64,000 bases of DNA from a virus, in the IMG/VR virus record IMGVR_UViG_3300022231_000029. The stretch is one strand, 5' to 3'. Both the position numbers and the translations under genes were made by a program. Positions 7,150-63,135 of this stretch are shown here, piece after piece. Positions within the stretch are counted from its first letter, which is position 1. Each line of letters opens with the position of its first letter. The notes beneath the pieces were generated by a model. That model made no database searches. It was not told the origin of the DNA and saw only the letters and a list, made by a program, of their open reading frames with translations.

Positions 7150-7722
7150 TTATCCTCCGATCTTGTAGTTGTTCGCTTTGCTGATCGAGCGTAAGTATCC
7201 TTTGAAACGGACACCCATCACTTGAGGCACAATGCTTGAGTTCGTGAGATACCACTTGAGCGACTGTCCTTCCAGAATGCGAAGGTTACACTCAATCATG
7301 TTCTCGTTTGAAAGGTCTGGCCCAACACCAAGAGACATGCGGTATGGAACTTTCTGCGGATTAGCAAGATCAGTCGGTGTACCGTGATACGGAAACACGC
7401 GAATGTCATTCAGCTTTGGAATGAATTCAGTCTGGTCAGCAAACTGAGCATCAGTATAAATACCGTATGCCGTGATGATTGCTTCCCATCCTTTCGGAGG
7501 CGCGAAGTTGATGAAGAGTTCTTCTGTAGTTCCGGAAGAAGCTTCAGCGACACGTCTTACGTCGAAAGACTGCCCATTCTGAGGAATGTTGATGAAGGGA
7601 TTCGAAAGTTTCTCCCCGACCATTTCAAAAAGTTGCGAGTAATCGCCACCTTTAAAAGCGTCGAGAATTTCCTTGATCGAAAAACGTCCCTGGAGGACGT
7701 TATCGGGTCTTTGATTCTTCAT
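7150..7722 (-). CDS. single-jelly-roll capsid protein paralog
   Basis: beta-rich; PPKGWEAIITAY, ILEGQSLKWYLTN, VRFKGYLRS; AAGGAGG RBS. Confidence 0.5.
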   Translation of the reverse strand: MKNQRPDNVLQGRFSIKEILDAFKGGDYSQLFEMVGEKLSNPFINIPQNGQSFDVRRVAEASSGTTEELFINFAPPKGWEAIITAYGIYTDAQFADQTEFIPKLNDIRVFPYHGTPTDLANPQKVPYRMSLGVGPDLSNENMIECNLRILEGQSLKWYLTNSSIVPQVMGVRFKGYLRSISKANNYKIGG

Positions 7723-7732
7723 TCATTCCTCC

Positions 7733-8398
7733 TTAACCTGTTACGAGGTTAGTGAGGTCTTGCTGTCCTTCGATACGGATTCTGTAGCCTTTGAAGATCA
7801 TGAACACAACAAAGTTTCTTGCAGAGTTGTTGTTCACGAGATCAATCTGAAGCTGCTGAAGCGGCATGAACATCATCGGACGATCAGGCAGGAACGGCTG
7901 GAAAGGTGCTCCGATCTGATCGAGCGGAACATAGTTGTCCTGGTAAGCGCGAGATGAAGATCCGTCAATCAAGGCAAAGCGAAGGCCATTGGCATCACCG
8001 TTACCGCTGATGTCGCGTGGGTTAATGTATTCGATTGTTGGTGTGACAGAATCGAAGTCTACGGCGAAAACAACTTTCACCATCTCTGTCCACACGAATG
8101 CAGCTTCCTGGGTGACTTCGAAGCTGATCTGTTGTTGACCACCGTTTGCTTCGAGCACATCAGAAGTAGCACAGAAGAAGAATGGCCAGATCACGTTGTT
8201 GATCGTGAGGGCATCTCCTGATGCGAGGTTCTTCAGATACTTCGCCCCGCCCGTCGGTGCGTTCACATATTGAGAGCGAACGTCATTTGCGGCCTGAAGG
8301 CGAGTATTTCTGATTTCCATGTCACGCTTCAGTTTATTCAACTGATCAACGTCCAGGGATTGAAGATTAATTTTGTTTCCTGTTGTTTCATCGGCCAT
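7733..8398 (-). CDS. single-jelly-roll capsid protein paralog
   Basis: WPFFF...FEVTQEAAFVWT...LIDGSSSRAYQDNYVPL...FKGYRIRI; colinear with ORF 8410. Confidence 0.55.
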   Translation of the reverse strand: MADETTGNKINLQSLDVDQLNKLKRDMEIRNTRLQAANDVRSQYVNAPTGGAKYLKNLASGDALTINNVIWPFFFCATSDVLEANGGQQQISFEVTQEAAFVWTEMVKVVFAVDFDSVTPTIEYINPRDISGNGDANGLRFALIDGSSSRAYQDNYVPLDQIGAPFQPFLPDRPMMFMPLQQLQIDLVNNNSARNFVVFMIFKGYRIRIEGQQDLTNLVTG

Positions 8399-8409
8399 AA
8401 AGCCCTCCC

Positions 8410-9081
8410 TTATCCGTTATGCTTCTGGAACATAGTTTTAAGAACAACGTCTGGACGCTGAATTCTTACTCGTGCTCCGTAGAGGGTGAAGTTCTGTGTA
8501 CCAACACCTTCAGTCTCGATATTAACGCCGGTAGGAAGCCAGCATTTGAGTTCAAGCATTGCTTGTGCTGATGGGTACAGAAGATATGGAACAGGAAGGT
8601 CAAAGAAGTAACCCTTCGATGGAAACACTTGAAGAGGTACTGGTTTGTCCATGAACTGTCTTGATGATTGCATATCGCGGAGAATGAGACTCAAAGGAGC
8701 TTCAAGCCCGGCAACACCGGCATCTTCGCAATCGCGATAGATACGAGTGACAAGAAATGCTGATTCGTTTGTGACCTTGAAAGACTTCTCGGCACGGAAA
8801 TTACTATTCCATGTCGGATCTGTCCCAAGATCGAAATCCACCTCATAGAAGAATCCCCACTGAACAGCGTTGATATCGCCTACGTTCGATGGGATCAGTT
8901 CCGGTGGAAGGATGTTATTCAGGTGGCGCTCAAGAGCGTTCTGTTTAACAGATGGTTGATCAAAGAGAGTGTTCGCACCTTTCTCCGCTTTCTGGAGACG
9001 GCGCTCTACGGAACGATTTTCTTTGATAGATGAATCGAGTGAGAGGATGTCAGCAATGAGTTGCTGTTTTTGATCTGCCAT
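8410..9081 (-). CDS. single-jelly-roll capsid protein paralog
   Basis: WGFFY...FKVTNESAFLVT...LRDMQSSRQFMDKPVPL...LYGARVRI; start moved to ATG 9081. Confidence 0.55.
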   Translation of the reverse strand: MADQKQQLIADILSLDSSIKENRSVERRLQKAEKGANTLFDQPSVKQNALERHLNNILPPELIPSNVGDINAVQWGFFYEVDFDLGTDPTWNSNFRAEKSFKVTNESAFLVTRIYRDCEDAGVAGLEAPLSLILRDMQSSRQFMDKPVPLQVFPSKGYFFDLPVPYLLYPSAQAMLELKCWLPTGVNIETEGVGTQNFTLYGARVRIQRPDVVLKTMFQKHNG

Positions 9082-9143
9082 AAAATTCCCTTTCTTCAAA
9101 GCTCTCACTTTTTCCAAAGCGGGCTTTATTCAAAGAGGTTGAT

Positions 9144-9183: not shown

Positions 9184-9783
9184 TTACTGAACCGGACGAC
9201 GGAGAAGACCCTTGAGCTGCGCAACGAAGCGGAGCGGATAGTTCGCACTCGGAGTCATAGCAGTGATCTGGCCAGAAGAAGCGCCTTCTACTTTCCAGAG
9301 CATGTAGAACTGAGTGAGAGGGCCGATATCAAGAGCCTGGTTCCCTTGGAACATAACAGGGTTGATATTCGCATCACCGTACTGAACGTAAGAATCAACT
9401 GTATCAGTGTCACCAGCGAGGGCAACCTGATGGCGGATTTTCGCGTTCACGAGGCGAAGCGGAGATTCCCAGTATTGCTTCTCAGCGAGCCAGAGCTGAA
9501 CGAACGAGTAGTTCGCGTAAAGAGCGAGAGCTTCGCGCTTAGCTGGATCGTTAGAAGAAGCATCAACCTGGATGCCCATGATACGGAAAGACTTGTTACG
9601 CTCAAGCTGTCCGTTACCACGGAGGTTTGAGAGAACAAGCGACTTACCTTGTGAGTTAGAGAAGAACTGACGCTCTTCCGTAACAACAGACGCGCTTGTG
9701 ATTTCAAGCGTGTCGTAAAGTGGTTGTTTGATCTGGTCACGAAGGGCAACACCGCCAACTTCGTTCAACTGTGTAGAAGCCAT
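9184..9783 (-). CDS. major capsid protein, single-jelly-roll type (inferred)
   Basis: QPLYDT motif, beta-strand pattern, terminal LKGLLRRPVQ; own promoter, AAGGAGG RBS and terminator. Confidence 0.6.
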   Translation of the reverse strand: MASTQLNEVGGVALRDQIKQPLYDTLEITSASVVTEERQFFSNSQGKSLVLSNLRGNGQLERNKSFRIMGIQVDASSNDPAKREALALYANYSFVQLWLAEKQYWESPLRLVNAKIRHQVALAGDTDTVDSYVQYGDANINPVMFQGNQALDIGPLTQFYMLWKVEGASSGQITAMTPSANYPLRFVAQLKGLLRRPVQ

Positions 9784-9882: not shown

Positions 9883-9916
9883 ATTGTATGCGGTTGCAAA
9901 AAAATTGCAACCGCAT
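9883..9916 (-). promoter_or_regulatory. capsid-gene promoter embedded in a 12-bp perfect palindrome
   Basis: TTGCAA(9910-9905)-16 nt-TACAAT(9888-9883); IR ATGCGGTTGCAA/TTGCAACCGCAT. Confidence 0.6.
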
Positions 9917-9928
9917 TTTTGTCACGTC

Positions 9929-11686
9929 TTAGAAATCAGCTTCTTCTTCACCATCATCATAGCTCACCTCGAAAGCAGAACCGAGGGAATCAGGATTTCT
10001 CGGAGCTGTCGGGATAGGGCCAGCGGAATCGAAGTCAGCATCTTGCATGTACGATCCAGACATCGGAGTAGTGATGTACCCGCCGAAGTCAGCATCAGTG
10101 ATTCCTTCCGGAGCACCGAAGTCAGACGAGTGGTAAGCACCCATCTGTGGAACAGCGATGATACCGCTCATCTGTGGAACCGCGATGATTCCCGAGAGAG
10201 CAGTCTGAGAACCGGCCATCTGAGCTGCTGCGAGGTAGAGTGATGTACCGAGGTTCACCACTGAAGCACCGATCACACCTTTAGCAATCGCCTTCGCTCT
10301 CTTATTACCTACGAAGTGATGAGCAGCACCAGCGATAGCGAGTGGAAGAATCGCATCGAAGTTCTTAGAAAGGAATGCGCCGAGAACCGGGATCTTAGCA
10401 ACAGATGTTTTCACTGTTGGGAAGAATTTTGTCATGGCATGTTTGATACCTTGAATAGCAGCACCACCAGCGAGGAGCCCACCGGCTTCCGCAAGTTCAT
10501 GACCAAGGTAATCCTGTGTGAAATCTTCGATTTTCTTCATAGCTCCTCCGAAAGATGGATTTGATTTAACTTTATGTTTTTTCGATTTATAAGAACGCTT
10601 CTTCTTAGAAGCTTTCTTAGATACAGACGGATGCGAAGAAGAAGCTTTCACTTTTCTGCGCTTCGAAGACTTTCTCTTCTTCGATTTTTTCTTTGTCGGT
10701 TTCTCTTCAGCGGCCATCATAGCAGCGGCCTTCTTAGAAACTTTGCGACGGTCGCCCCCGTTAGAAGATTTTTTCTTCGAGCCTTTACGCTTAGAAGATT
10801 TACGAGCTTTCTTTTTAGAAGCTTTTTTCTTCTTACGCTTAGGATTCTCACCAACGATCACCGATGGGTTAGATGCGATGATAGGGTTTGACTTCTTCTT
10901 GTGCGAACGACGCTTAGAAGCTTTCGCCCCTTTACGCTTATGAGTACGTCTCTTCGAAGAAGACTTACGAGCTTTACGCTTGATAGACTTTTTCGGAGTT
11001 ACTTTTTTCGCGGATTTTTTTCTCTTGTGGGTTTTCATCTTTTTAGATGACTTCACCTTTCTCGTCTTCTTGGCCACTTTCGCCGCCTTTTTCTTACGTT
11101 TTTTCTCGCCAGGAAGTTTGACGGATTTTACTTTTTTCGCTGAAGAGTTGAGCTTCTTGTAAAGTGCTTTGAGTTTCTTCTCAGCGCGCTTAACATCAGA
11201 TGCTTCTTTCTTCATCTCTCTGCGAGCTTCAGCTTCAGACATATCAAGGGAACGAACGTACCCTTTGTCTTTCATCTTCGCTTCTTCTTTCTTAAGCTTT
11301 TCAATGCGCCCACGAATTGTTTTCGTGAGATGCTCTTTCACCTTCTGAGCGGCCTTGAGTTTCTTCTCAACACCCTGGACGTTCTTTGCTTTCGAAAGAT
11401 CGTTCACAGCTTTGTTGAGTGTGCTGAAAGCTTTATCGGTTTCTTTCTGAGTGAAAACTTTCACCTTACCGATAACGATGGATGGGCCCTTGTTAGGGAT
11501 CTGTTTTTTAGCTCCGACCGGAAGACCTTTTGCGAGTCTTTCTTCGAGGGTCATCAGTCTTGAGCCACCTCCCTGCTTGCGATACACAGCAGAGGTAGGG
11601 TTCTTTTTGCGTTTTCTGAGAGAGCGCATAGGTTTCTCCTTCCTTTTTTTGCGAGACGGATTATTGTAAAAAATCTGTAAGTCCAT
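9929..11686 (-). CDS. Lys/Arg-rich putative genome-condensing core protein precursor with membrane segment and acidic tail
   Basis: H1/protamine-like KKxSK tracts, seven NP motifs, hydrophobic helices, SGIIAVPQM repeat, DADFG motifs. Confidence 0.7.
   Translation of the reverse strand: MDLQIFYNNPSRKKRKEKPMRSLRKRKKNPTSAVYRKQGGGSRLMTLEERLAKGLPVGAKKQIPNKGPSIVIGKVKVFTQKETDKAFSTLNKAVNDLSKAKNVQGVEKKLKAAQKVKEHLTKTIRGRIEKLKKEEAKMKDKGYVRSLDMSEAEARREMKKEASDVKRAEKKLKALYKKLNSSAKKVKSVKLPGEKKRKKKAAKVAKKTRKVKSSKKMKTHKRKKSAKKVTPKKSIKRKARKSSSKRRTHKRKGAKASKRRSHKKKSNPIIASNPSVIVGENPKRKKKKASKKKARKSSKRKGSKKKSSNGGDRRKVSKKAAAMMAAEEKPTKKKSKKRKSSKRRKVKASSSHPSVSKKASKKKRSYKSKKHKVKSNPSFGGAMKKIEDFTQDYLGHELAEAGGLLAGGAAIQGIKHAMTKFFPTVKTSVAKIPVLGAFLSKNFDAILPLAIAGAAHHFVGNKRAKAIAKGVIGASVVNLGTSLYLAAAQMAGSQTALSGIIAVPQMSGIIAVPQMGAYHSSDFGAPEGITDADFGGYITTPMSGSYMQDADFDSAGPIPTAPRNPDSLGSAFEVSYDDGEEEADF
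10142..10195 (-). repeat. 27-bp in-frame tandem repeat (SGIIAVPQM x2)
   Basis: CATCTGTGGAAC(A/C)GCGATGAT(A/T)CC unit duplicated. Confidence 0.85.
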
Positions 11687-11702: not shown

Positions 11703-12095
11703 TTAACCGATGATACCTTTCAGATTGCGTATGGCGGCGAGATCCGAGTTCTCGTCGATTTCAAGGAGCCTCGAATCATTATACGCAACATTCGGATTTA
11801 CTAAAATAAGAAAAGGTGAATCCTTCAAGTGGTAGAGAACTGTAGGGCCCGAAAACTTATGATCCCACAACACCTCAAGGTCTTCCTGATCTCTGGAGTT
11901 CACGCGAATATATGTGATGTTCGGCACGAAACCAATCAGGTCAACTTTGTTTGACCGGAGAAGCTTTTCGTATTTCACACCCTCTGGAGAAGATTTTCCT
12001 TTCTTGAAGATCCGGACAGCTTTCAGAACGGCCTCAAGAACTATCGATCTTTGCTTGCCACTTCCCCACATAAGAATGTTTGCCCACTTCATCAT
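11703..12095 (-). CDS. small virion-module protein
   Basis: ORF within late operon; ends GIIG. Confidence 0.7.
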   Translation of the reverse strand: MMKWANILMWGSGKQRSIVLEAVLKAVRIFKKGKSSPEGVKYEKLLRSNKVDLIGFVPNITYIRVNSRDQEDLEVLWDHKFSGPTVLYHLKDSPFLILVNPNVAYNDSRLLEIDENSDLAAIRNLKGIIG

Positions 12096-12098
12096 GGA

Positions 12099-12776
12099 TT
12101 ACTTCCCGAGCCCAACGGCCTTCAACGCCTTCTCATTGATTCTCTCACCAATGAGACCACGATTTTTATACGCGAGATATCCAACACCGATGGCAGCAAC
12201 ACCCAACACCAGTGGAAGATTTCCCGCCACAAATGAAATGATCTTTGCGCCACCGGATACCGTGTTTGAAACAACGGATGCGGTAGTCTGAACAACAGAG
12301 TTAACGGTCTTCGCCGTATCCTTGGCCACCAGCTTCGTAGCATCCCAATATGTCCACTTGACATTAGTAGGGTTGATGAAGGCAGACGCAATCGACTTCC
12401 TCGAAGGAAGCATATTTTTATTCGAAGAGAAAGACTTCAAAAGAGAAGCTTTCACCTTGTCAGCAATCGAAGAGTTCGTGAGATAAGAAAAACCAACATC
12501 CCGAAGAAAGTCTTGGTAGTCCTCATCTGAGATCGTAGACGTATAAGCAGCATCAAGCTTCAGAGCATCCACAAACTGAGCATACGTAGCAGAAGGCTTC
12601 AGATCATTATAAAGACTTTGAATCCAGTTCTGACCCGCGACCAGCTCCTGAGCCGGAGTAAATGTTTTCGAAGATGATGAAAACCAATCAAGAGGATTCA
12701 GTGAGAATCCCATCGTTCCGAAGTCACTATTTGTGACAGGAGCGCCGACACCACCAAAATCCATTTTCTTTGTCAT
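12099..12776 (-). CDS. tail-anchored virion membrane protein with DFG leader
   Basis: MDFGG and SDFGTMG motifs; C-terminal TM LPLVLGVAAIGVGYLAY. Confidence 0.75.
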   Translation of the reverse strand: MTKKMDFGGVGAPVTNSDFGTMGFSLNPLDWFSSSSKTFTPAQELVAGQNWIQSLYNDLKPSATYAQFVDALKLDAAYTSTISDEDYQDFLRDVGFSYLTNSSIADKVKASLLKSFSSNKNMLPSRKSIASAFINPTNVKWTYWDATKLVAKDTAKTVNSVVQTTASVVSNTVSGGAKIISFVAGNLPLVLGVAAIGVGYLAYKNRGLIGERINEKALKAVGLGK

Positions 12777-17572: not shown

Positions 17573-17989
17573 TTATTTTTTGATTACCTTGTAGATAACT
17601 GCCAGAGCAAGGAGTCCTCCGAGGACAGACGCGCCGATGATGATAGGGCCCTGATACTGAGTCCAGAATGATGGCCCTGTCGCCACGTAGCCAGCAGGAA
17701 GAACACCGGTAGGAAGAGTTCCTGTGGCCTGATATTGTGCTGCCTGCTCCGGAGTGAGTGTCACTTGAGATGTTTTTCCGTCTGCACCAGCGATATTGAG
17801 AACGAATTTCTCAACGGCCTTTGTAACAGCTTTCGTTGCTGACTTCTGAGCAGAGTCAACAGTCTTACTCACAAGATCAGACCAGAAATCACCCATGCCA
17901 CCAAAGTCACTTGAAACAACATTCGTGCCAATGCCCGCCATTGTGTATTTTTTCACAAGCGAGGGTTTTACCAATCTTGGTGATTTCAT
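17573..17989 (-). CDS. tail-anchored virion membrane protein
   Basis: SDFGGMGDFW motif; C-terminal TM followed by basic residues. Confidence 0.75.
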   Translation of the reverse strand: MKSPRLVKPSLVKKYTMAGIGTNVVSSDFGGMGDFWSDLVSKTVDSAQKSATKAVTKAVEKFVLNIAGADGKTSQVTLTPEQAAQYQATGTLPTGVLPAGYVATGPSFWTQYQGPIIIGASVLGGLLALAVIYKVIKK

Positions 17990-18436
17990 TTAGACCTTCT
18001 TTTTAAATGTGTTGAAAAGCCCAAGCGCCGTGAGAATTGTCAGTCCTGCTGCAACCGGGATAATGACGATTTTGTACTTAGAAAAAATTTCTGCTACTGA
18101 TGCCATAACAGTATCAGTGACTGCCTTCTGAGCATTCGGATCAGTACCAAGCTTCGATCCAACAACATTCGTGAGAGCAGTCGTAGCACCAGACTGAAGA
18201 GTTGTCTTTACTGTCTCAGCACCTTTGTCACCAAAGATAGCGGAGAAGATATCGTTGGCAGACGTTCCCATGCCCGATGTTCCTGGAGTATAAAAATCAC
18301 CAGACGTATAGGAGATCCCGCCAAAGTCAGCATCACCCATCCCTTTTTTCTTCACTGGAAAATAAGGCATAGGCTTTGGCATTGGTCTTGGCATACCTCT
18401 TGGAACTGCACCGAAATCACCTGAGTTACATTTCAT
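17990..18436 (-). CDS. tail-anchored virion membrane protein
   Basis: SGDFGA, GMGDADFGG, SGMG motifs; C-terminal TM. Confidence 0.75.
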   Translation of the reverse strand: MKCNSGDFGAVPRGMPRPMPKPMPYFPVKKKGMGDADFGGISYTSGDFYTPGTSGMGTSANDIFSAIFGDKGAETVKTTLQSGATTALTNVVGSKLGTDPNAQKAVTDTVMASVAEIFSKYKIVIIPVAAGLTILTALGLFNTFKKKV

Positions 18437-18448
18437 ATTTTGTCTCCT

Positions 18449-19042
18449 TTAGACTGCGAATTCTTGGCCAGAAGCTGACTTCATTTCAAACCCGATGGGA
18501 CGATCCTTGACGATAGCATCCAGGACAAGACGTTTCACCGGGCCCGGATTCATTGTATCAGTAATGTTGCGTTCATAGACGACAACATAGATGTGATTGA
18601 AAGATTGAGACTTATCGGAGTATCGAACACAACAAAAGACCGGCCGGATGCCAATACTCATGAGAAGAGTCGCGATGAGAAGAGACATGTCATCACAGTC
18701 ACCCATGGCATACCCAACATCGGCCATCATCTTGATCATCATATCCGGAGTCTGAAGCGACTCCGTGCCGACAGGATCTTTTACATAACGAATGTTTTTT
18801 TGAACAAATGTACCAATCGCTCTTGCCTCATCAAGATAGTGATGAGAAGGAATTTTTTCGTAGTTCAGGATATTGGTAGCAAGACGCTTAACGAGAGCAC
18901 TTTGAGAATACTCCTGAGCAAGCTTTTTCATGACAGCGACAGTATCAAGGTTGCCCTTGATACCGTCACCGACTTTACTTATTGTTTGATCAGGAAGTTT
19001 ACCGAGATTCTGGAGAGGTCGCTTTCTGGGAAAGATAATCAT
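18449..19042 (-). CDS. transglutaminase-like cysteine protease (putative maturation protease)
   Basis: catalytic triad pattern GDCDD...FNHIYV...VLDA; IRYVKDP motif. Confidence 0.85.
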   Translation of the reverse strand: MIIFPRKRPLQNLGKLPDQTISKVGDGIKGNLDTVAVMKKLAQEYSQSALVKRLATNILNYEKIPSHHYLDEARAIGTFVQKNIRYVKDPVGTESLQTPDMMIKMMADVGYAMGDCDDMSLLIATLLMSIGIRPVFCCVRYSDKSQSFNHIYVVVYERNITDTMNPGPVKRLVLDAIVKDRPIGFEMKSASGQEFAV

Positions 19043-24653: not shown

Positions 24654-24911
24654 ATGACAGTAAACAAGGTACAACCTCAATATATCTCTGATGAAATAGC
24701 CAGAGATAACGAAGTCCCCGCCTTTGCTCGTGCCACAGTTCTTACGGGGCTTTCACTCGCAACAGGGGGCACGATTTCTGCTGCGAACACGATGCTCGAA
24801 GCATTCGGAAAACTTCAATATCAAATCACAAATTTCTCATACAATATCGACGGCGGTACTCCAAGTAGTACATTCGTCGTCGGAGCATCTATTAATGGAG
24901 GGACACCGTAA
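24654..24911 (+). CDS. small fibre-associated protein
   Basis: AGGAGG RBS; TAATG coupling to next gene. Confidence 0.7.
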   Translation: MTVNKVQPQYISDEIARDNEVPAFARATVLTGLSLATGGTISAANTMLEAFGKLQYQITNFSYNIDGGTPSSTFVVGASINGGTP

Positions 24912-26110
24912 TGGCACAAACAATTCAATTACGAGGTGGTACAGCAGCGGAGTGGTCACTGGCCAATCCGGTTCTGGCCTCACGAGAGATGGGAGTTGAG
25001 ACTGATACAGGTCAATTCAAAATCGGGAACGGGGTTTTGGCCTGGAGTGCTCTTCCTTACGGAGGTCTTGAAGGGCCAGCACAAACTGATGCTATTCAAG
25101 ATTTTGGTGATGGGAATGATGCCAACTTAACAATTTCATCCGGAGTCGTTACTCTCACCCAAGATACTTATTATCAGAATCTTACTATTAGTGGCACGGG
25201 CCAGCTAATCACAAACGGATTCAGAGTATTTGTAAAAGGGAATCTTGACCTGAGTAATGCTCCTCAATTCGCTATCGTGGCAAGAGCATCAGCAAACGGA
25301 AACAATGCTACTAACCAAACGGCCGGAGCTGGTGGAGCTGCAGTTACTGCAGGAACACTTGGAGGGACAGGTGCCGGAGGAGCAGGAGCAACGGGTGTTG
25401 TAGGGGCCGGAGCGCAAGCAGCAGCACCTACCGCTGTCTCTCCTTCAAATGGAGGATCTGGTGGCGCAGGAGGAGCAGGCGGGCTAGGCTCAGGCGGGGC
25501 CGGTGGTGCATTAAGGGCCGGAGCGGCAGCTTCTCTTCCTCTTGAATTTGCGCGCTTCACTTATGACCTGATAAGAGGTGTTACTCTTGTTCAAGGCGGA
25601 GCTGGAGGCGCTGGCGGATCATCAGGCGGTGGTGACGGTACTAACCTTGGTCGCGGCGGAGGCGGCGGAGGAGCTGGCGGAGGGATTCTCGCTATCTGGG
25701 CGAAGACAATCACAACTTCCGTTTCAACTCCTTCAAGCGTTATTGCAGCGATAGGAGGAAATGGCGGTAACGGTGGCGCAGCAGTCGCAGGAAACGCCGG
25801 AGGCGGCGGTGGCGGCGGTGGCGGCGGTGGCGGATACTGTCTCATCTACTATCAAACTCGCGTAGGGCCCACAGTTACGAACGGTATCAACGCAAGCGGT
25901 GGTACTGGAGGTAACGGTTCAAACGGAGCAGGAACAGGAGTCGGAGGAGTTGGAGGAACAGGAGGAACAGGTGGAAGGATTAGGCTCTACCTCACACTCA
26001 CTCAGTCCTCATCCTCTATTGTTGGATCAACAGGTACGGCCGGAAACGCAGCTTCTGGTAATACTGGTGGTGTAGGAGGCGCTGGCGGATCAGCGTTATT
26101 AAATTTATGA
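24911..26110 (+). CDS. glycine-rich fibre with Mtd-N/hyaluronidase-N-like anchor domain
   Basis: IQLRGGTAAEW...NPVLASREMGVETDTGQFKIGNG...W..LPY; GGxGG-rich body. Confidence 0.8.
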   Translation: MAQTIQLRGGTAAEWSLANPVLASREMGVETDTGQFKIGNGVLAWSALPYGGLEGPAQTDAIQDFGDGNDANLTISSGVVTLTQDTYYQNLTISGTGQLITNGFRVFVKGNLDLSNAPQFAIVARASANGNNATNQTAGAGGAAVTAGTLGGTGAGGAGATGVVGAGAQAAAPTAVSPSNGGSGGAGGAGGLGSGGAGGALRAGAAASLPLEFARFTYDLIRGVTLVQGGAGGAGGSSGGGDGTNLGRGGGGGGAGGGILAIWAKTITTSVSTPSSVIAAIGGNGGNGGAAVAGNAGGGGGGGGGGGGYCLIYYQTRVGPTVTNGINASGGTGGNGSNGAGTGVGGVGGTGGTGGRIRLYLTLTQSSSSIVGSTGTAGNAASGNTGGVGGAGGSALLNL

Positions 26111-26498: not shown

Positions 26499-27092
26499 GT
26501 GATGATTATGAAGGATTTCGTTCAAAGAATTTTTTTCAAGACTGTTTCTTTCTGCTCGTATCACATTGGTCGAATCTATGCGCCATACGCACGAAAGCTG
26601 ATCACAGGATCAGATCTTCGTGCGATGCTGGCGGTGGGAATCCAGGATGGAGACATCCTGGTTTCTCGCACCAATGGAGAACTCGCGAATGTCGCTATTC
26701 CTGGAGTGATGTCTCATCTTGGAGTCATTGAGGGCCAGACTGTTTACGAAGCATCAACAACAGGTGTCCGAAACGTAGATATTATTGATTTCTTCATCAA
26801 TAAGGATGTCATTGCTGTTCTTCGTCCGAACTTCATGACTCCGGAGCAGATTGCTCTCCAGATGTCGTACCTGAAAGCTCAGATCGGCAAGCCTTATAAC
26901 TATGATTTCAAGTTCTCAGAAAGCGATGACAAGTTCTATTGCACGGAACTCGGATATAAATCCATTGTTTTCGGGAATAAAGAATCTCCCTTCACCCTGA
27001 GACGCCGCCTCGGCGTCTTAACTGTTTCACCAGACGACTTCTATAAAGCGCAAAAGAAGTTTATAATGGTCTGGAAATCAAAATCCCTCTAG
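26499..27092 (+). CDS. permuted papain-like NlpC/P60 (YiiX/YebB-like) hydrolase
   Basis: GDILVSR...MSHLGV...VYEA...IGKPYNYDF...FYCTELG (His before Cys). Confidence 0.85.
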   Translation: MMIMKDFVQRIFFKTVSFCSYHIGRIYAPYARKLITGSDLRAMLAVGIQDGDILVSRTNGELANVAIPGVMSHLGVIEGQTVYEASTTGVRNVDIIDFFINKDVIAVLRPNFMTPEQIALQMSYLKAQIGKPYNYDFKFSESDDKFYCTELGYKSIVFGNKESPFTLRRRLGVLTVSPDDFYKAQKKFIMVWKSKSL

Positions 27093-55232: not shown

Positions 55233-56894
55233 GTGAACTCATCTGATCTTTTCTTCAAAACCATTCGATCAAACCCCACTGATGACGAATTCGAAAGAGA
55301 AACGATTCGAGAAGGAACCACAAAAATTTCAGACCCGGAATCAGGATCTTTCGTCCTGGTAAAAAAAGTGAAAGGAAAATATGAGTGCTGGCCAGAAGGC
55401 GATCAATTCAAGATCACCAAGCACCCCAATCGCAGTCAGGCCTTTTCATGGTCAAACGCCTATCTCCGGAAAGTAAAAAGAAATCCCGTCAAGAAAATCA
55501 AATCGAAAAAAAGAATTTTAAAAAAGAATAATCCTAGCACATGGAAGGAAGAAGGATTCATTCTTCAATCACAAGGCATATCCGCTGGCACATCCTATCG
55601 CAAGCTAACCATCATCGCTCTCACTCCCGACGATGGCGACAAAAGAGAAATGGCCGGCCAGTATCGGTTTATATCTAAAGACGGAGAAGATCACATCTCT
55701 GTTCAGGATTCTTTTACGATTGATAAATTTCAACGTAAAGGCCTTGCGAGTGCCGCCTATTCAATGGCCGAAAAAATTTTCGGTAAAAAAATAGAGCCCT
55801 CAGACTCTTTCGGCGCTCAAACCGAAGATGCAAAAAAATTGTGGAATCGCCCGAACAGGCCATTTGGAAAATCAAACCCTAAGAAATTATCTTTATCCGA
55901 GAAAGAATTTTCTGATCTTTACGACAAACATGACGGCTACTACCCCGCCATGGCAAAAGACCTGGGCTGGTGGGACAAGAAAGAATCTACCCACCTCACC
56001 CAGCTCGCCGAAAGAAGAAACTGGCTTGAGAAGTATCCACCAAAGAAAGTCGATAAGAACCATGACGAGTATTCCGATGATGTCATCACTCTTTATGGAC
56101 AGGACTGGTCAATCGAAAAAATTGCCAAAAAGATCCGCATCCCGATTGCTGACGTGAAAGAAGTTTTGATTAAAAATAAAATAAAGATTCGTGATCAATT
56201 CAAGAAAAGAAGTAACCCAAGACTCATCAGCGTTCGTGCCACTGCTCTGAAATATATTCCTGCTCTCGCTGATTGGTACTCAAAGCTTCTCGCTACGAAA
56301 AACAAAGAAGACTCCATCAAGTTCATTCAGCAGATCATCTGGCTCCAGGGACTCTTTTTCTATGCGCCATCGAATGCCCTGATGACTGCACTTATGTTCA
56401 ATCACCTTTTTGATACGCCATCGAAAATGGACATGAAGCTCATGGTTGAATCGACAATGAAGTATTGTAATGATTCCGTTGATGACGTGATCTTCTTTCT
56501 TCAGGCAGTTTCTGAAAAGCCTGACACGTATGCCTCAAAAGTTCTTTCCATCTTTTCCGGGAAAGAATCTCGCATTCCTGGTGTGTCTTATGAAGAGATT
56601 CTGAAGATGATGACTCGTGACTATGTTATCAATTTCCTCGACCTGTCTCCTTCTGCAGCTCTCATCTACTGCACAAACTTTATTCGCTCAACCGAGATGG
56701 CGGGAGAAAGTGTAGGGCCTCTGAAAAATTCAATTCTTGAAAGACTCCTTGAGCGCATGAAGCTTTCCGGCGACGATCCTATGAGCGAAGAAATTAAAAC
56801 CATGATCAATGACCAGTTCATTGGTGCGGAAAGAATGATTGCTGAATCAACTGAAATTATCTCATCAATAGGAGTATCAAATGAGCGAAATTAA
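55233..56894 (+). CDS. multidomain NP-delimited protein with GNAT-like and HTH-like modules
   Basis: five basic-x-NP motifs at domain borders; FQRKGLASAAY...QTEDAKKLW (GNAT); WSIEKIAKKIRIPIADVKEVL (HTH). Confidence 0.75.
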   Translation: MNSSDLFFKTIRSNPTDDEFERETIREGTTKISDPESGSFVLVKKVKGKYECWPEGDQFKITKHPNRSQAFSWSNAYLRKVKRNPVKKIKSKKRILKKNNPSTWKEEGFILQSQGISAGTSYRKLTIIALTPDDGDKREMAGQYRFISKDGEDHISVQDSFTIDKFQRKGLASAAYSMAEKIFGKKIEPSDSFGAQTEDAKKLWNRPNRPFGKSNPKKLSLSEKEFSDLYDKHDGYYPAMAKDLGWWDKKESTHLTQLAERRNWLEKYPPKKVDKNHDEYSDDVITLYGQDWSIEKIAKKIRIPIADVKEVLIKNKIKIRDQFKKRSNPRLISVRATALKYIPALADWYSKLLATKNKEDSIKFIQQIIWLQGLFFYAPSNALMTALMFNHLFDTPSKMDMKLMVESTMKYCNDSVDDVIFFLQAVSEKPDTYASKVLSIFSGKESRIPGVSYEEILKMMTRDYVINFLDLSPSAALIYCTNFIRSTEMAGESVGPLKNSILERLLERMKLSGDDPMSEEIKTMINDQFIGAERMIAESTEIISSIGVSNERN

Positions 56895-62655: not shown

Positions 62656-63135
62656 TTACCACTCGTCGTCGTCTTCCTCTTCTTCTTCCTCTTCCTCGTC
62701 CTCGTCGTAATAATCATCATCTTGGTCGTCGTCATCGTAATCGTCGTCATCACCGTCATCATCGTAACCATAATCGTCAATTTCTTCTTCCTCTTCTTCC
62801 TCGTAACGGGAAGAAGGATTTACCTTGACATTCGCGGATGCAATGTGCTTGTTGAGCTGTTTTGTCATATCCATCATGAAGATCGAGCCAGCGGGAACCT
62901 TCAGGGTCTTGCTCCCCATTTTCGCTGTCTTCGAAGGCTTCAAGATCGTCTTCAGAGTAGCATCAAGCTTGATGAACCGGGCATTACCTGGAACCTGAAG
63001 CTTTTTCTTCTTGATGTATGCCCAGATTTTTTTAGTGACATCAGTTCTCGGCATAGGGCCCTTACCGATGACTGCGGCCAGAGCGGTGGAAATTTTCACC
63101 GGCTTCTTCAACGCACTCCCTTTCTTCTTGCTCAT
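62656..63135 (-). CDS. SWIB/MDM2-domain protein with very acidic C-terminal tail
   Basis: LKKPVKISTALAAVIG...MPRTDVTKKIWAYIKKKKLQ...IKLDATLKTI...IFMMDMTKQLNKHI; poly-D/E tail. Confidence 0.88.
   Translation of the reverse strand: MSKKKGSALKKPVKISTALAAVIGKGPMPRTDVTKKIWAYIKKKKLQVPGNARFIKLDATLKTILKPSKTAKMGSKTLKVPAGSIFMMDMTKQLNKHIASANVKVNPSSRYEEEEEEEIDDYGYDDDGDDDDYDDDDQDDDYYDEDEEEEEEEEDDDEW

Follow-up and report, generated by a model that had tools for sequence, protein, structure and literature searches.

What might a very large, lysine-rich protein do when its gene lies next to a capsid-like gene of a virus? The question is raised by the IMG/VR virus record IMGVR_UViG_3300022231_000029. The window analysed here, a stretch of 64,000 nucleotides (nt) of this record, contains an open reading frame (ORF) at positions 9929..11686 on the minus strand (stop codon included). 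With 585 codons and no internal stop the frame is real, and its translation gives a protein of 585 amino acids (aa), 64.0 kDa and pI 10.6, here called the K-rich protein. The role proposed for it, held at slightly less than even confidence, is that of a virion-internal, membrane-anchored polycation that would neutralise or tether the genome and would be made as a modular precursor delimited by Asn-Pro (NP) dipeptides. Its sequence can fairly be read as that of a modular precursor which combines a polycation with a membrane-type anchor, because the layout is conserved and the gene stands in a late block together with genes for jelly-roll and small membrane proteins. The virus is probably a tailless, membrane-containing jelly-roll phage with a linear genome of ~73 kb.

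A modular layout conserved across the family

Residues 1-375 carry a net charge of +119 and consist of lysine and arginine to 38%, with three lysines to each arginine in the basic region. An earlier note on this DNA had described about 370 residues of extreme Lys/Arg/Ser low complexity. The description fits residues 181-375 (10562..11146; K 37%, S 17%, R 10%, A 9%; K+R 47%, net +86) but not residues 41-180 (11147..11566, net +21), which are rich in K, E and A and, judging from composition alone, probably helical. The basic region is followed by an Ala/Gly/Leu-rich part (residues 376-500, net +5) and an acidic end (residues 501-585, net -14). The NP contexts, the tandem repeat, the DFG motifs, PRNP and the acidic end listed in the note were each found again in the translation.

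All modules lie on the minus strand. The N-terminal decapeptide MDLQIFYNNP (11657..11686) corresponds to a family consensus M-D-L-Q-F-V-F-G-N-P, and the second NP, in KRKKNP (NP at residues 29-30, 11597..11602), to a family motif [KR][KR]NP with a short aromatic/hydrophobic patch (NPxxVYxKK). A mid cluster of three NP (SNPIIASNPSVIVGENP, residues 267-282, 10841..10888), in which the dipeptides bracket short hydrophobic strands, is retained in most close homologs. The seam NP, N376-P377 (10556..10561), was located in an alignment of 50 members and stands immediately N-terminal to the C-domain. The hydrophobic helical part of this domain (residues 378-497, 10196..10555), delimited by AlphaFold2 (AF2), hydropathy and alignment, contains three conserved Gly-zipper-like helices, EAGGLLAGGA, ILPLAIAGAA and KGVIGASVVNLG. 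Motif search placed two exact tandem copies of SGIIAVPQM behind it (residues 498-506 and 507-515, 10142..10195), followed by a tail, disordered according to AF2, with SSDFG, DADFG and DADFDS (residues 516-561, 10004..10141; DFG at residues 522 and 533, DADF at 531 and 549). PRNP (residues 562-565) and the acidic end ..SYDDGEEEADF, delimited in the close-clade alignment, conclude the protein (residues 562-585, 9932..10003; net about -8 after the NP). From a 12-sequence alignment of the C-domain, AF2 predicted three to four helices over residues ~380-490 (predicted local distance difference test, pLDDT, 65-79) and disorder in the remainder.

A word-indexed search with residues 375-585 returned 11 close homologs of 443-593 aa, and a C-domain profile run against 1.84 billion cluster representatives retrieved 154 at E<=1e-3 and 55 at E<=1e-10. 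Full-length members share a common plan of leader, K/R-rich stretch, second NP, seam NP and C-domain with tail, and the succession of basic region, hydrophobic domain and acidic-aromatic tail is kept family-wide. The K/R-rich stretch comprises some 200-430 residues, and its best 100-aa window typically reaches 41-72% K+R. The C-domain helices follow the patterns EAGGLxxGGA, VPVVGxxLPxLLxG and GKGLIGAxVVGxG, and the tail carries two or three G[IV]x[YFA][TV]PxM repeats, the counterpart of SGIIAVPQM, plus several ADFG, a motif that at least 90% of the members contain. The PRNP site and an ..E-x-D-F end are limited to the close clade, where the C-terminal Phe is nearly invariant, and the wider family ends in ..GQMG or similar.

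Comparison of the K-rich protein and nine of its neighbours with Pfam and PHROGs gave nothing usable, Pfam on 50 C-domains produced scattered chance matches with no consistent family, and a sequence-profile search of the PDB with the C-domain and the neighbouring capsid-like protein found no match. The diverse 50-member C-domain alignment proved too variable for a pattern scan. No paper on the K-rich family or on an NP signal in phages was found in the literature. The family is unannotated in any library, and naming it would annotate at least 154 cluster representatives.

Stand-alone C-domain genes were ruled out. The short members checked (P0161 and P0123; P0109 by position only) begin 25-107 nt from a contig end, and in two with DNA the frame is open upstream, reading ..RTNPLGG.. 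and ..RKNPIFGG.., and these are assembly truncations. Contigs of this virus group often break within the K-rich coding region (L008 at 1-100, L010 at 1-140, and the contig of P0109); its A-rich low-complexity DNA seems to defeat assemblers and to leave false 'short' C-domain genes at contig ends.

The NP dipeptides of the K-rich protein lie at residues 9, 29, 267, 273, 281, 376 and 564, in the contexts YNNP, KKNP, KSNP, ASNP, GENP, KSNP and PRNP, respectively. Only 0.73 would be expected from composition, and none of 20,000 shuffles reached seven. Across the 124 family members of at least 350 aa, 497 NP were observed against 68 expected, a 7.3-fold enrichment that only DF (out of ADFG) attains comparably. 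Each member carries 4-9 sites, in basic, apparently disordered sequence. The expectation that NP positions recur in homologs, which the earlier note had proposed as a check, is clearly borne out: the leader NP falls within residues 6-14 in 111/124 members, and the second, [KR][KR]NP, follows 17-122 residues in (K/R at -1 in 71/98 and at -2 in 81/98). The N and P that precede the C-domain are present in 50/50 diverse members and form the sole invariant columns of an alignment with a mean column identity of 23%. The codons at the NP sites vary (AAT or AAC; CCG, CCT, CCA or CCC), so that selection acts on the protein and not on the DNA; a DNA-level motif underlying NP was ruled out, as the codons are unlike at every site.

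Possible cleavage, hinge or hook at the NP seams

The likeliest role of the seams, put forward tentatively and clearly short of an even chance, is that of processing sites cut between N and P. A purely structural role as an Asx-Pro hinge or docking motif is given a place close behind as a serious possibility. What probability remains falls to a DNA hook, in which NPKK is likened to the SPKK of DNA-binding repeats.

The protein consists of modules strung together, each beginning just after an Asn-Pro. If the seams are processing sites, cutting at every site would free a 9-residue leader (residues 1-9, net -1), a 20-residue basic peptide (10-29, net +11), a 27-kDa basic piece (30-267, net +67), two tiny hydrophobic peptides (268-273 and 274-281, net 0 and -1), an 11-kDa basic piece (282-376, net +43), a neutral 19-kDa membrane piece (377-564, net -1) and, in the close clade, a 21-residue acidic peptide (565-585, net -8). 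By analogy, this predicted set, with its mu-/VII-like basic pieces, would strikingly resemble adenovirus VII/mu.

Proteins that cut an Asn-Pro bond are known, among them FlhB/YscU with their NPTH motif. The bond is broken through Asn cyclisation in RsgI (PMC10328401) and in reovirus mu1 / aquareovirus VP5, where it is N42-P43 (PMC9148132). The K-rich family resembles these Asn-Pro lyases in its strictly conserved Asn-Pro between two functional pieces, and in the viral cases a capsid-associated protein thereby releases a small N-terminal peptide. The lyases, however, have one site per protein, placed in a folded pocket, whereas the K-rich family has 4-9.

Several results weigh against cleavage. 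Self-cleavage at Asn-Pro needs a folded pocket, and the present sites lie in low-complexity stretches or at low AF2 confidence (pLDDT <50 at N376); a pocket that arises around the NP only after assembly is possible. Because the sites are multiple and situated in basic, apparently disordered sequence, self-cleavage is no more likely than cutting by an external protease or the absence of any cutting. The other late proteins, two NP-rich ones excluded, contain 48 NP against about 35 expected, and since the dipeptide is not depleted there, NP alone would be insufficient as a protease site. Among the short C-domain genes checked, no gene split at the NP seam was found. Two further readings of the dipeptide were ruled out: 2A-type ribosome skipping, as NPGP is absent, and an N-glycosylation sequon, as N-P-S/T is the non-acceptor form.

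A candidate processing or cross-linking enzyme could be the 197-aa transglutaminase-like (papain-fold) protein encoded in the late block at 18449..19042 on the minus strand, with the pattern GDCDD..NHIYV..LDAI. Its match to the transglutaminase core (E 0.006) is below the Pfam cut-off, and the Cys-His-Asp pattern is conserved. The enzyme retains 70% identity in the related locus L001 and 49% even in the distant locus L009, where identity of the K-rich protein drops to ~30%. It is less likely to be a true cross-linker, with the leader Gln as its target, than a protease.

The only other NP-rich protein of the window, at 55233-56894, has five NP against 1.0 expected, all of the form [KR/S]xNP, and its start, ..DLFFKTIRSNP, is loosely reminiscent of the leader MDLQIFYNNP. 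The basic-flanked invariant Asn-Pro seam, which marks modular enzyme proteins of these phages too, is a simple candidate signal of a new type, either for processing or for docking, that can be put to the test. A more far-reaching proposal, regarded as doubtful, is that of a large, undescribed lineage of bacterial jelly-roll viruses with linear, protein-primed genomes of ~40-75 kb and an adenovirus-like core maturation that uses its own [KR][KR]-Asn-Pro signal, cut between Asn and Pro. In such a lineage the seams would be cut by the transglutaminase-fold cysteine enzyme, or through Asn cyclisation once assembly is complete, the membrane-anchored precursor would release mu/VII-like peptides, and the NP-seamed enzyme polyprotein at 55233-56894 would be cut as well.

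Genome, membrane and shell

In the proposed role, the 365-residue polycation (about +119) would bind nucleic acid non-specifically and would neutralise or condense the ~73-kb genome, as histone H1 tails, adenovirus VII/V/mu or ascovirus P64 do. That the genome is the polyanion bound is given nearly, though not quite, as much weight as all other possibilities together. It is favoured because the K/S/R stretch is almost devoid of the aromatics usual in lipid-binding polybasic segments, because the length of the basic region varies two-fold, as bulk counter-charge would, and because ascovirus P64 and other virion proteins known to condense DNA have a similar size and charge. By arithmetic, a couple of hundred copies at +119 would balance ~1/6 of the ~146,000 phosphates that a 73-kb genome carries. 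The three Gly-zipper helices would keep the protein within the viral lipid layer or attached to it, and the disordered acidic-aromatic tail, with its G-I-I-A-V-P-x-M repeats and ADFG, would dock to another virion component. DFG appears to be a short linear motif common to several membrane-anchored late proteins, the K-rich tail included, and such shared peptides might point to a single docking surface for all of them, the simplest candidate being the inside of the shell. A complex prediction for the tail (residues 495-585) with the 199-aa jelly-roll protein of the neighbouring gene scored 0.00, which counts neither for nor against docking. The idea that the acidic tail is self-neutralising finds no support: about -14 stands against +119, and only the close clade has the ..EEEADF end and PRNP.

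In the prevailing view, phages package their DNA naked and under pressure. Histone-like proteins dedicated to the core are a hallmark of jelly-roll viruses of eukaryotes, for example adenoviruses, ascoviruses and giant viruses. In adenoviruses, the basic proteins pVII, V and pX/mu neutralise a protein-primed linear double-stranded DNA in a jelly-roll capsid; the core precursors are trimmed by a virion cysteine protease, and protein V links the core to the shell. The present virus shares with them the polycation, the jelly-roll capsid block, the protein-primed polymerase and a papain-fold enzyme in the late operon. It differs in its single 64-kDa chain in place of three small proteins, in the hydrophobic membrane-type domain and in the bacterial host. 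The adenovirus protease sites, (M/I/L)xGx-G or (M/I/L)xGG-x, are also unlike the N-P of the K-rich protein, which is preceded by K/R or F-G. The analogy to pVII/mu drawn in the earlier note is retained for the polycation and the jelly-roll block, but it extends to no Pfam match and no sequence relationship.

The note had also called the protein histone-H1/protamine-like, which is apt for its Lys-rich, Ser/Ala-containing composition and not for its ancestry: no Pfam family matched at E<=0.01, the winged-helix globular domain of linker histone H1 included, and there is no sequence relationship. The histone H1 tail and the SPKK and AT-hook repeats are likewise Lys/Ser/Ala-rich and bind DNA by charge, and the NPKK after the leader recalls the SPKK turn; compared with the H1 tail, the K-rich protein has fewer Ala and Pro, and its seam NP is followed by FGGAM and not by basic residues. 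Protamines are small (<15 kDa) and arginine-dominated, whereas the K-rich protein has 64.0 kDa and is dominated by lysine. Microvirus J, a protein of 20-40 residues, tethers the genome inside a jelly-roll capsid through a basic stretch that binds single-stranded DNA and a short hydrophobic end; unlike the K-rich protein it is tiny, serves a single-stranded genome and has neither membrane nor seams.

Two further virion proteins invite comparison. Ascovirus P64 is a 64-kDa protein of pI 12.2 whose basic repeat domain condenses the genomic DNA (PMC6163548). It is, like the K-rich protein, unusually large and very basic, and its virus has an internal membrane; it is unlike it in its Arg/Ser repeats and cysteine-containing N-domain, in the lack of a Gly-zipper and of NP seams and in coming from an insect virus. 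Homology between the two was not found, P64 being absent from the matches of every search. VP11 of P23-77, a membrane-containing Thermus phage, is described in PMC12429598 as a basic (pI 10.6), 22-kDa minor capsid protein. A role in assembly via lipid-protein interactions is named in the title of Pawlowski 2015, as cited in PMC12429598 and PMC6356626. Both VP11 and the K-rich protein are basic proteins beside single-jelly-roll capsid proteins, and the fold of the neighbour here resembles P23-77 VP17/VP16. VP11, compared by description only, is soluble and without hydrophobic helices or NP motifs. By analogy, the closest functional counterparts of the K-rich protein would be adenovirus V/VII/mu and ascovirus P64, to which it adds a microvirus-J- or VP11-like tether.

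VP11 is also the model for a rival explanation, that of a capsid-membrane cement. The polycation would then lie between shell and vesicle without contact to the DNA, bind both the anionic head groups of the lipids and, from below, the jelly-roll capsomers, and aid shell assembly on the membrane. The basic nature of VP11 itself, the similarity of the capsid-like neighbour to P23-77 / HHIV-2 type proteins and the fixed gene order beside the capsid genes speak for such a cement, as does the positive-inside rule, which would place the basic region on that side of a pinched-off vesicle which faces the capsid. Yet 365 residues with a charge of +119 go far beyond the needs of a glue (VP11 has 22 kDa), the K/S/R stretch is nearly without the aromatic and hydrophobic residues usual in lipid binding, and a length variation of about two-fold suits bulk charge better than a measured spacer; on balance a cement is considered unlikely, if the most credible of the rivals. 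Somewhat more doubtful is a genome-delivery (pilot or ejection) protein, whose helices would insert into the host membrane, or reshape the viral membrane as a tube, and so form a DNA conduit, with the polycation accompanying the DNA and shielding it from nucleases. No tape-measure or pilot family matched the K-rich protein (Pfam on 50 C-domains, PHROGs), and a 64-kDa passenger carrying +119 would hardly pass a narrow conduit unless cut first. The Gly-zipper helices and the Gly/Met/Pro-rich tail do recall the membrane-entering segments of tape measures, phages co-inject basic proteins with their DNA, for example the internal proteins of T4, and the Atlas structure neighbours of the C-domain are all membrane proteins, although at TM scores <0.45 that make them a lead only. 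The sequence gives nothing to separate a conduit from a static anchor.

Covalent cross-linking is improbable. Here the transglutaminase-like enzyme would join the Gln of the leader and of the ..GQMG end to lysines of the polycation or the capsid, producing a chain-mail-like core in which NP is merely a turn or hinge. This would leave the invariance of NP unexplained, the close clade of the 585-aa protein lacks the ..GQMG end, and transglutaminase-like proteins of microbes mostly act as proteases or have no assigned activity. In its favour are the Cys-His-Asp triad of the 197-aa enzyme, intact and conserved across the group in spite of the sub-threshold match, the Gln4 found in 76/103 aligned leaders, the common Q-M/L-G ends and the vast excess of lysine. 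A late non-structural protein, finally, either a membrane assembly chaperone that gathers viral DNA or an unpackaged compactor of the host nucleoid, is very improbable. A polycation binds any DNA, and the anchor would place the protein at the cytoplasmic membrane, the presumed assembly site, but structural proteins are the ones that typically show such a strict position in the capsid block and such co-conservation with the jelly-roll gene, here seen over a very broad family.

Against the proposed membrane-anchored, genome-neutralising polycation itself, several points have to be set. The internal membrane, virion residence, DNA binding, membrane insertion, docking and cleavage are all predictions from sequence. 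The hydrophobic helices of the 585-aa protein reach a maximum Kyte-Doolittle value of 1.46 (19-aa window), below the usual transmembrane mark of 1.6, so that of the membrane segment claimed earlier the three helices are present, with a peak that stays short of this mark. At the same three helices 33/50 family members exceed 1.6, which makes a membrane-embedded or -inserted helical hairpin or bundle plausible for the family; for the 585-aa member it is marginal. Basic domains stay on the cytoplasmic face of a membrane according to the positive-inside rule. The +119 domain would be kept cytoplasmic and, after a PRD1-type inward pinch-off, would face the capsid and not the DNA, which favours a VP11-like cement. 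Contact with the DNA needs either peripheral rather than spanning insertion or a membrane and shell that close around pre-condensed DNA. No Walker-A motif (G/AxxxxGK[ST]) was found in 111 greedy-selected ORFs of the window; ~8.8 kb of the 72.8-kb contig lie outside it, and a packaging ATPase gene may be located there. Relatives were absent from 50,697 GenBank phages (tblastn with two C-domains), from IMG/VR (scanned with the C-domain, with the capsid-like protein and with the alignment of the latter) and from GTDB (one genome per species, scanned with the capsid-like alignment). With the negative PDB search, this means that the family is known only from raw metagenome assemblies.

The K-rich protein would be a virion polycation of a known sort, and the NP seam could be new in kind. 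Were the far-reaching proposal of a separate lineage with its own core maturation true, the NP seam would be a new proteolytic signal and the protein the first histone-like genome condenser described in a membrane-containing phage. The occurrence of a conserved 64-kDa polycation with a fused membrane-type anchor in a large uncultured group of putative tailless phages, whose protein-primed genomes have ~70 kb, suggests that charge-neutralised, membrane-tethered cores may also exist in bacterial jelly-roll viruses, which bears on the origin of adenovirus-like cores.

The capsid-like neighbour and the late block

The downstream partner of the K-rich gene (9184..9783, minus strand; P0013) encodes a capsid-like protein of 199 aa, which AF2 predicts as a single jelly roll (pLDDT 81). 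Structure comparison with VIA-align matched it best to capsid proteins of membrane-containing viruses, namely SPV1 (Z 7.8, 143 aligned, root-mean-square deviation 3.7), HHIV-2 (Z 7.3) and P23-77 VP17 (Z 7.0), and P23-77 VP16 and HCIV-1 are further matches. Values of Z <8 are rated middling by the tool, but the list of matches is consistent nonetheless; Foldseek reported SPV1 at a probability of 1.00, yet with E 5e-3. The protein is the best conserved of the block, with 37-84% identity over 38 clusters. The K-rich gene had been said to adjoin the major capsid gene. It does lie directly upstream of a jelly-roll gene for which the capsid call is reasonable, but the qualifier 'major' is not borne out. 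A strong ribosome-binding site, AAGGAGG, belongs to the capsid-like gene.

A jelly-roll gene of ~192-199 aa stands directly downstream of the K-rich gene in all close loci and in most distant loci read; at one distant locus a small called ORF lies between the K-rich gene and the ~195-aa gene. The upstream partner, identified by synteny, encodes a 130-aa protein ending in ..LKGIIG (11703..12095, minus strand). A gene of ~130-145 aa occupies this place in the close loci and in two distant ones, and an Atlas look-up of the 130-aa protein was uninformative, with low-score leads only. The whole order, [~750 aa][~700 aa][~210-aa membrane protein][~132 aa][K-rich gene][199 aa][222][216][195][107], is kept in 6/6 related contigs with gene tables (five of them with DNA), and the core trio [~135 aa][K-rich gene][~195 aa] is kept even in very distant members.

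The gap of 145 nt between the stop codon of the K-rich gene and the capsid-like gene holds a perfect 12-bp hairpin (9888..9916, strand not assigned). Its arms, ATGCGGTTGCAA..TTGCAACCGCAT, form an inverted repeat that begins 13 nt past the stop codon. A T-run is found on the opposite strand only and none on the gene strand, so the hairpin may have an RNA-stabilising or attenuating role rather than that of a terminator.

Among the other late proteins, those of 235 and 221 aa (7733-9117), whose genes lie downstream of the jelly-roll gene, are paralogous to each other, with 26% identity over 160 residues (E 1e-5). The genes at 12099-12776, 17573-17989 and 17990-18436 encode small late proteins that carry a single hydrophobic anchor at the C-terminus and DFG(G) at the N-terminus; their DFG(G) starts (MDFGG..SDFGTMG, SSDFGGMG and SGDFGA) recur in several homologs (L001-L004). 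A conserved terminal Gly is found in several late proteins encoded at 7150-9117 and 11703-12095, which end in ..KHNG (235 aa), ..LVTG (221 aa), ..YKIGG (190 aa), ..SVG (133 aa) and ..KGIIG (130 aa); these endings are kept in the close relatives L001-L004, and three of them also in the distant L009. Comparison of the large late ORFs with families revealed none of the markers of tailed phages, namely HK97 capsid, portal or terminase.

Elsewhere the window encodes a protein-primed family-B polymerase and an Mtd-like receptor-binding protein. A Peptidase_C92 protein (permuted papain-like amidase, E 2.5e-11) at 26499-27092 lies two genes after the Mtd_N-containing candidate at 24911-26110. Next to the polymerase and terminal-protein genes, a 159-aa protein (62656-63135) combines a SWIB/MDM2 domain (E 1.5e-19), a chromatin-type domain that is unusual in a phage, with a basic N-terminus and a poly-Glu/Asp tail ending in ..DDDEW.

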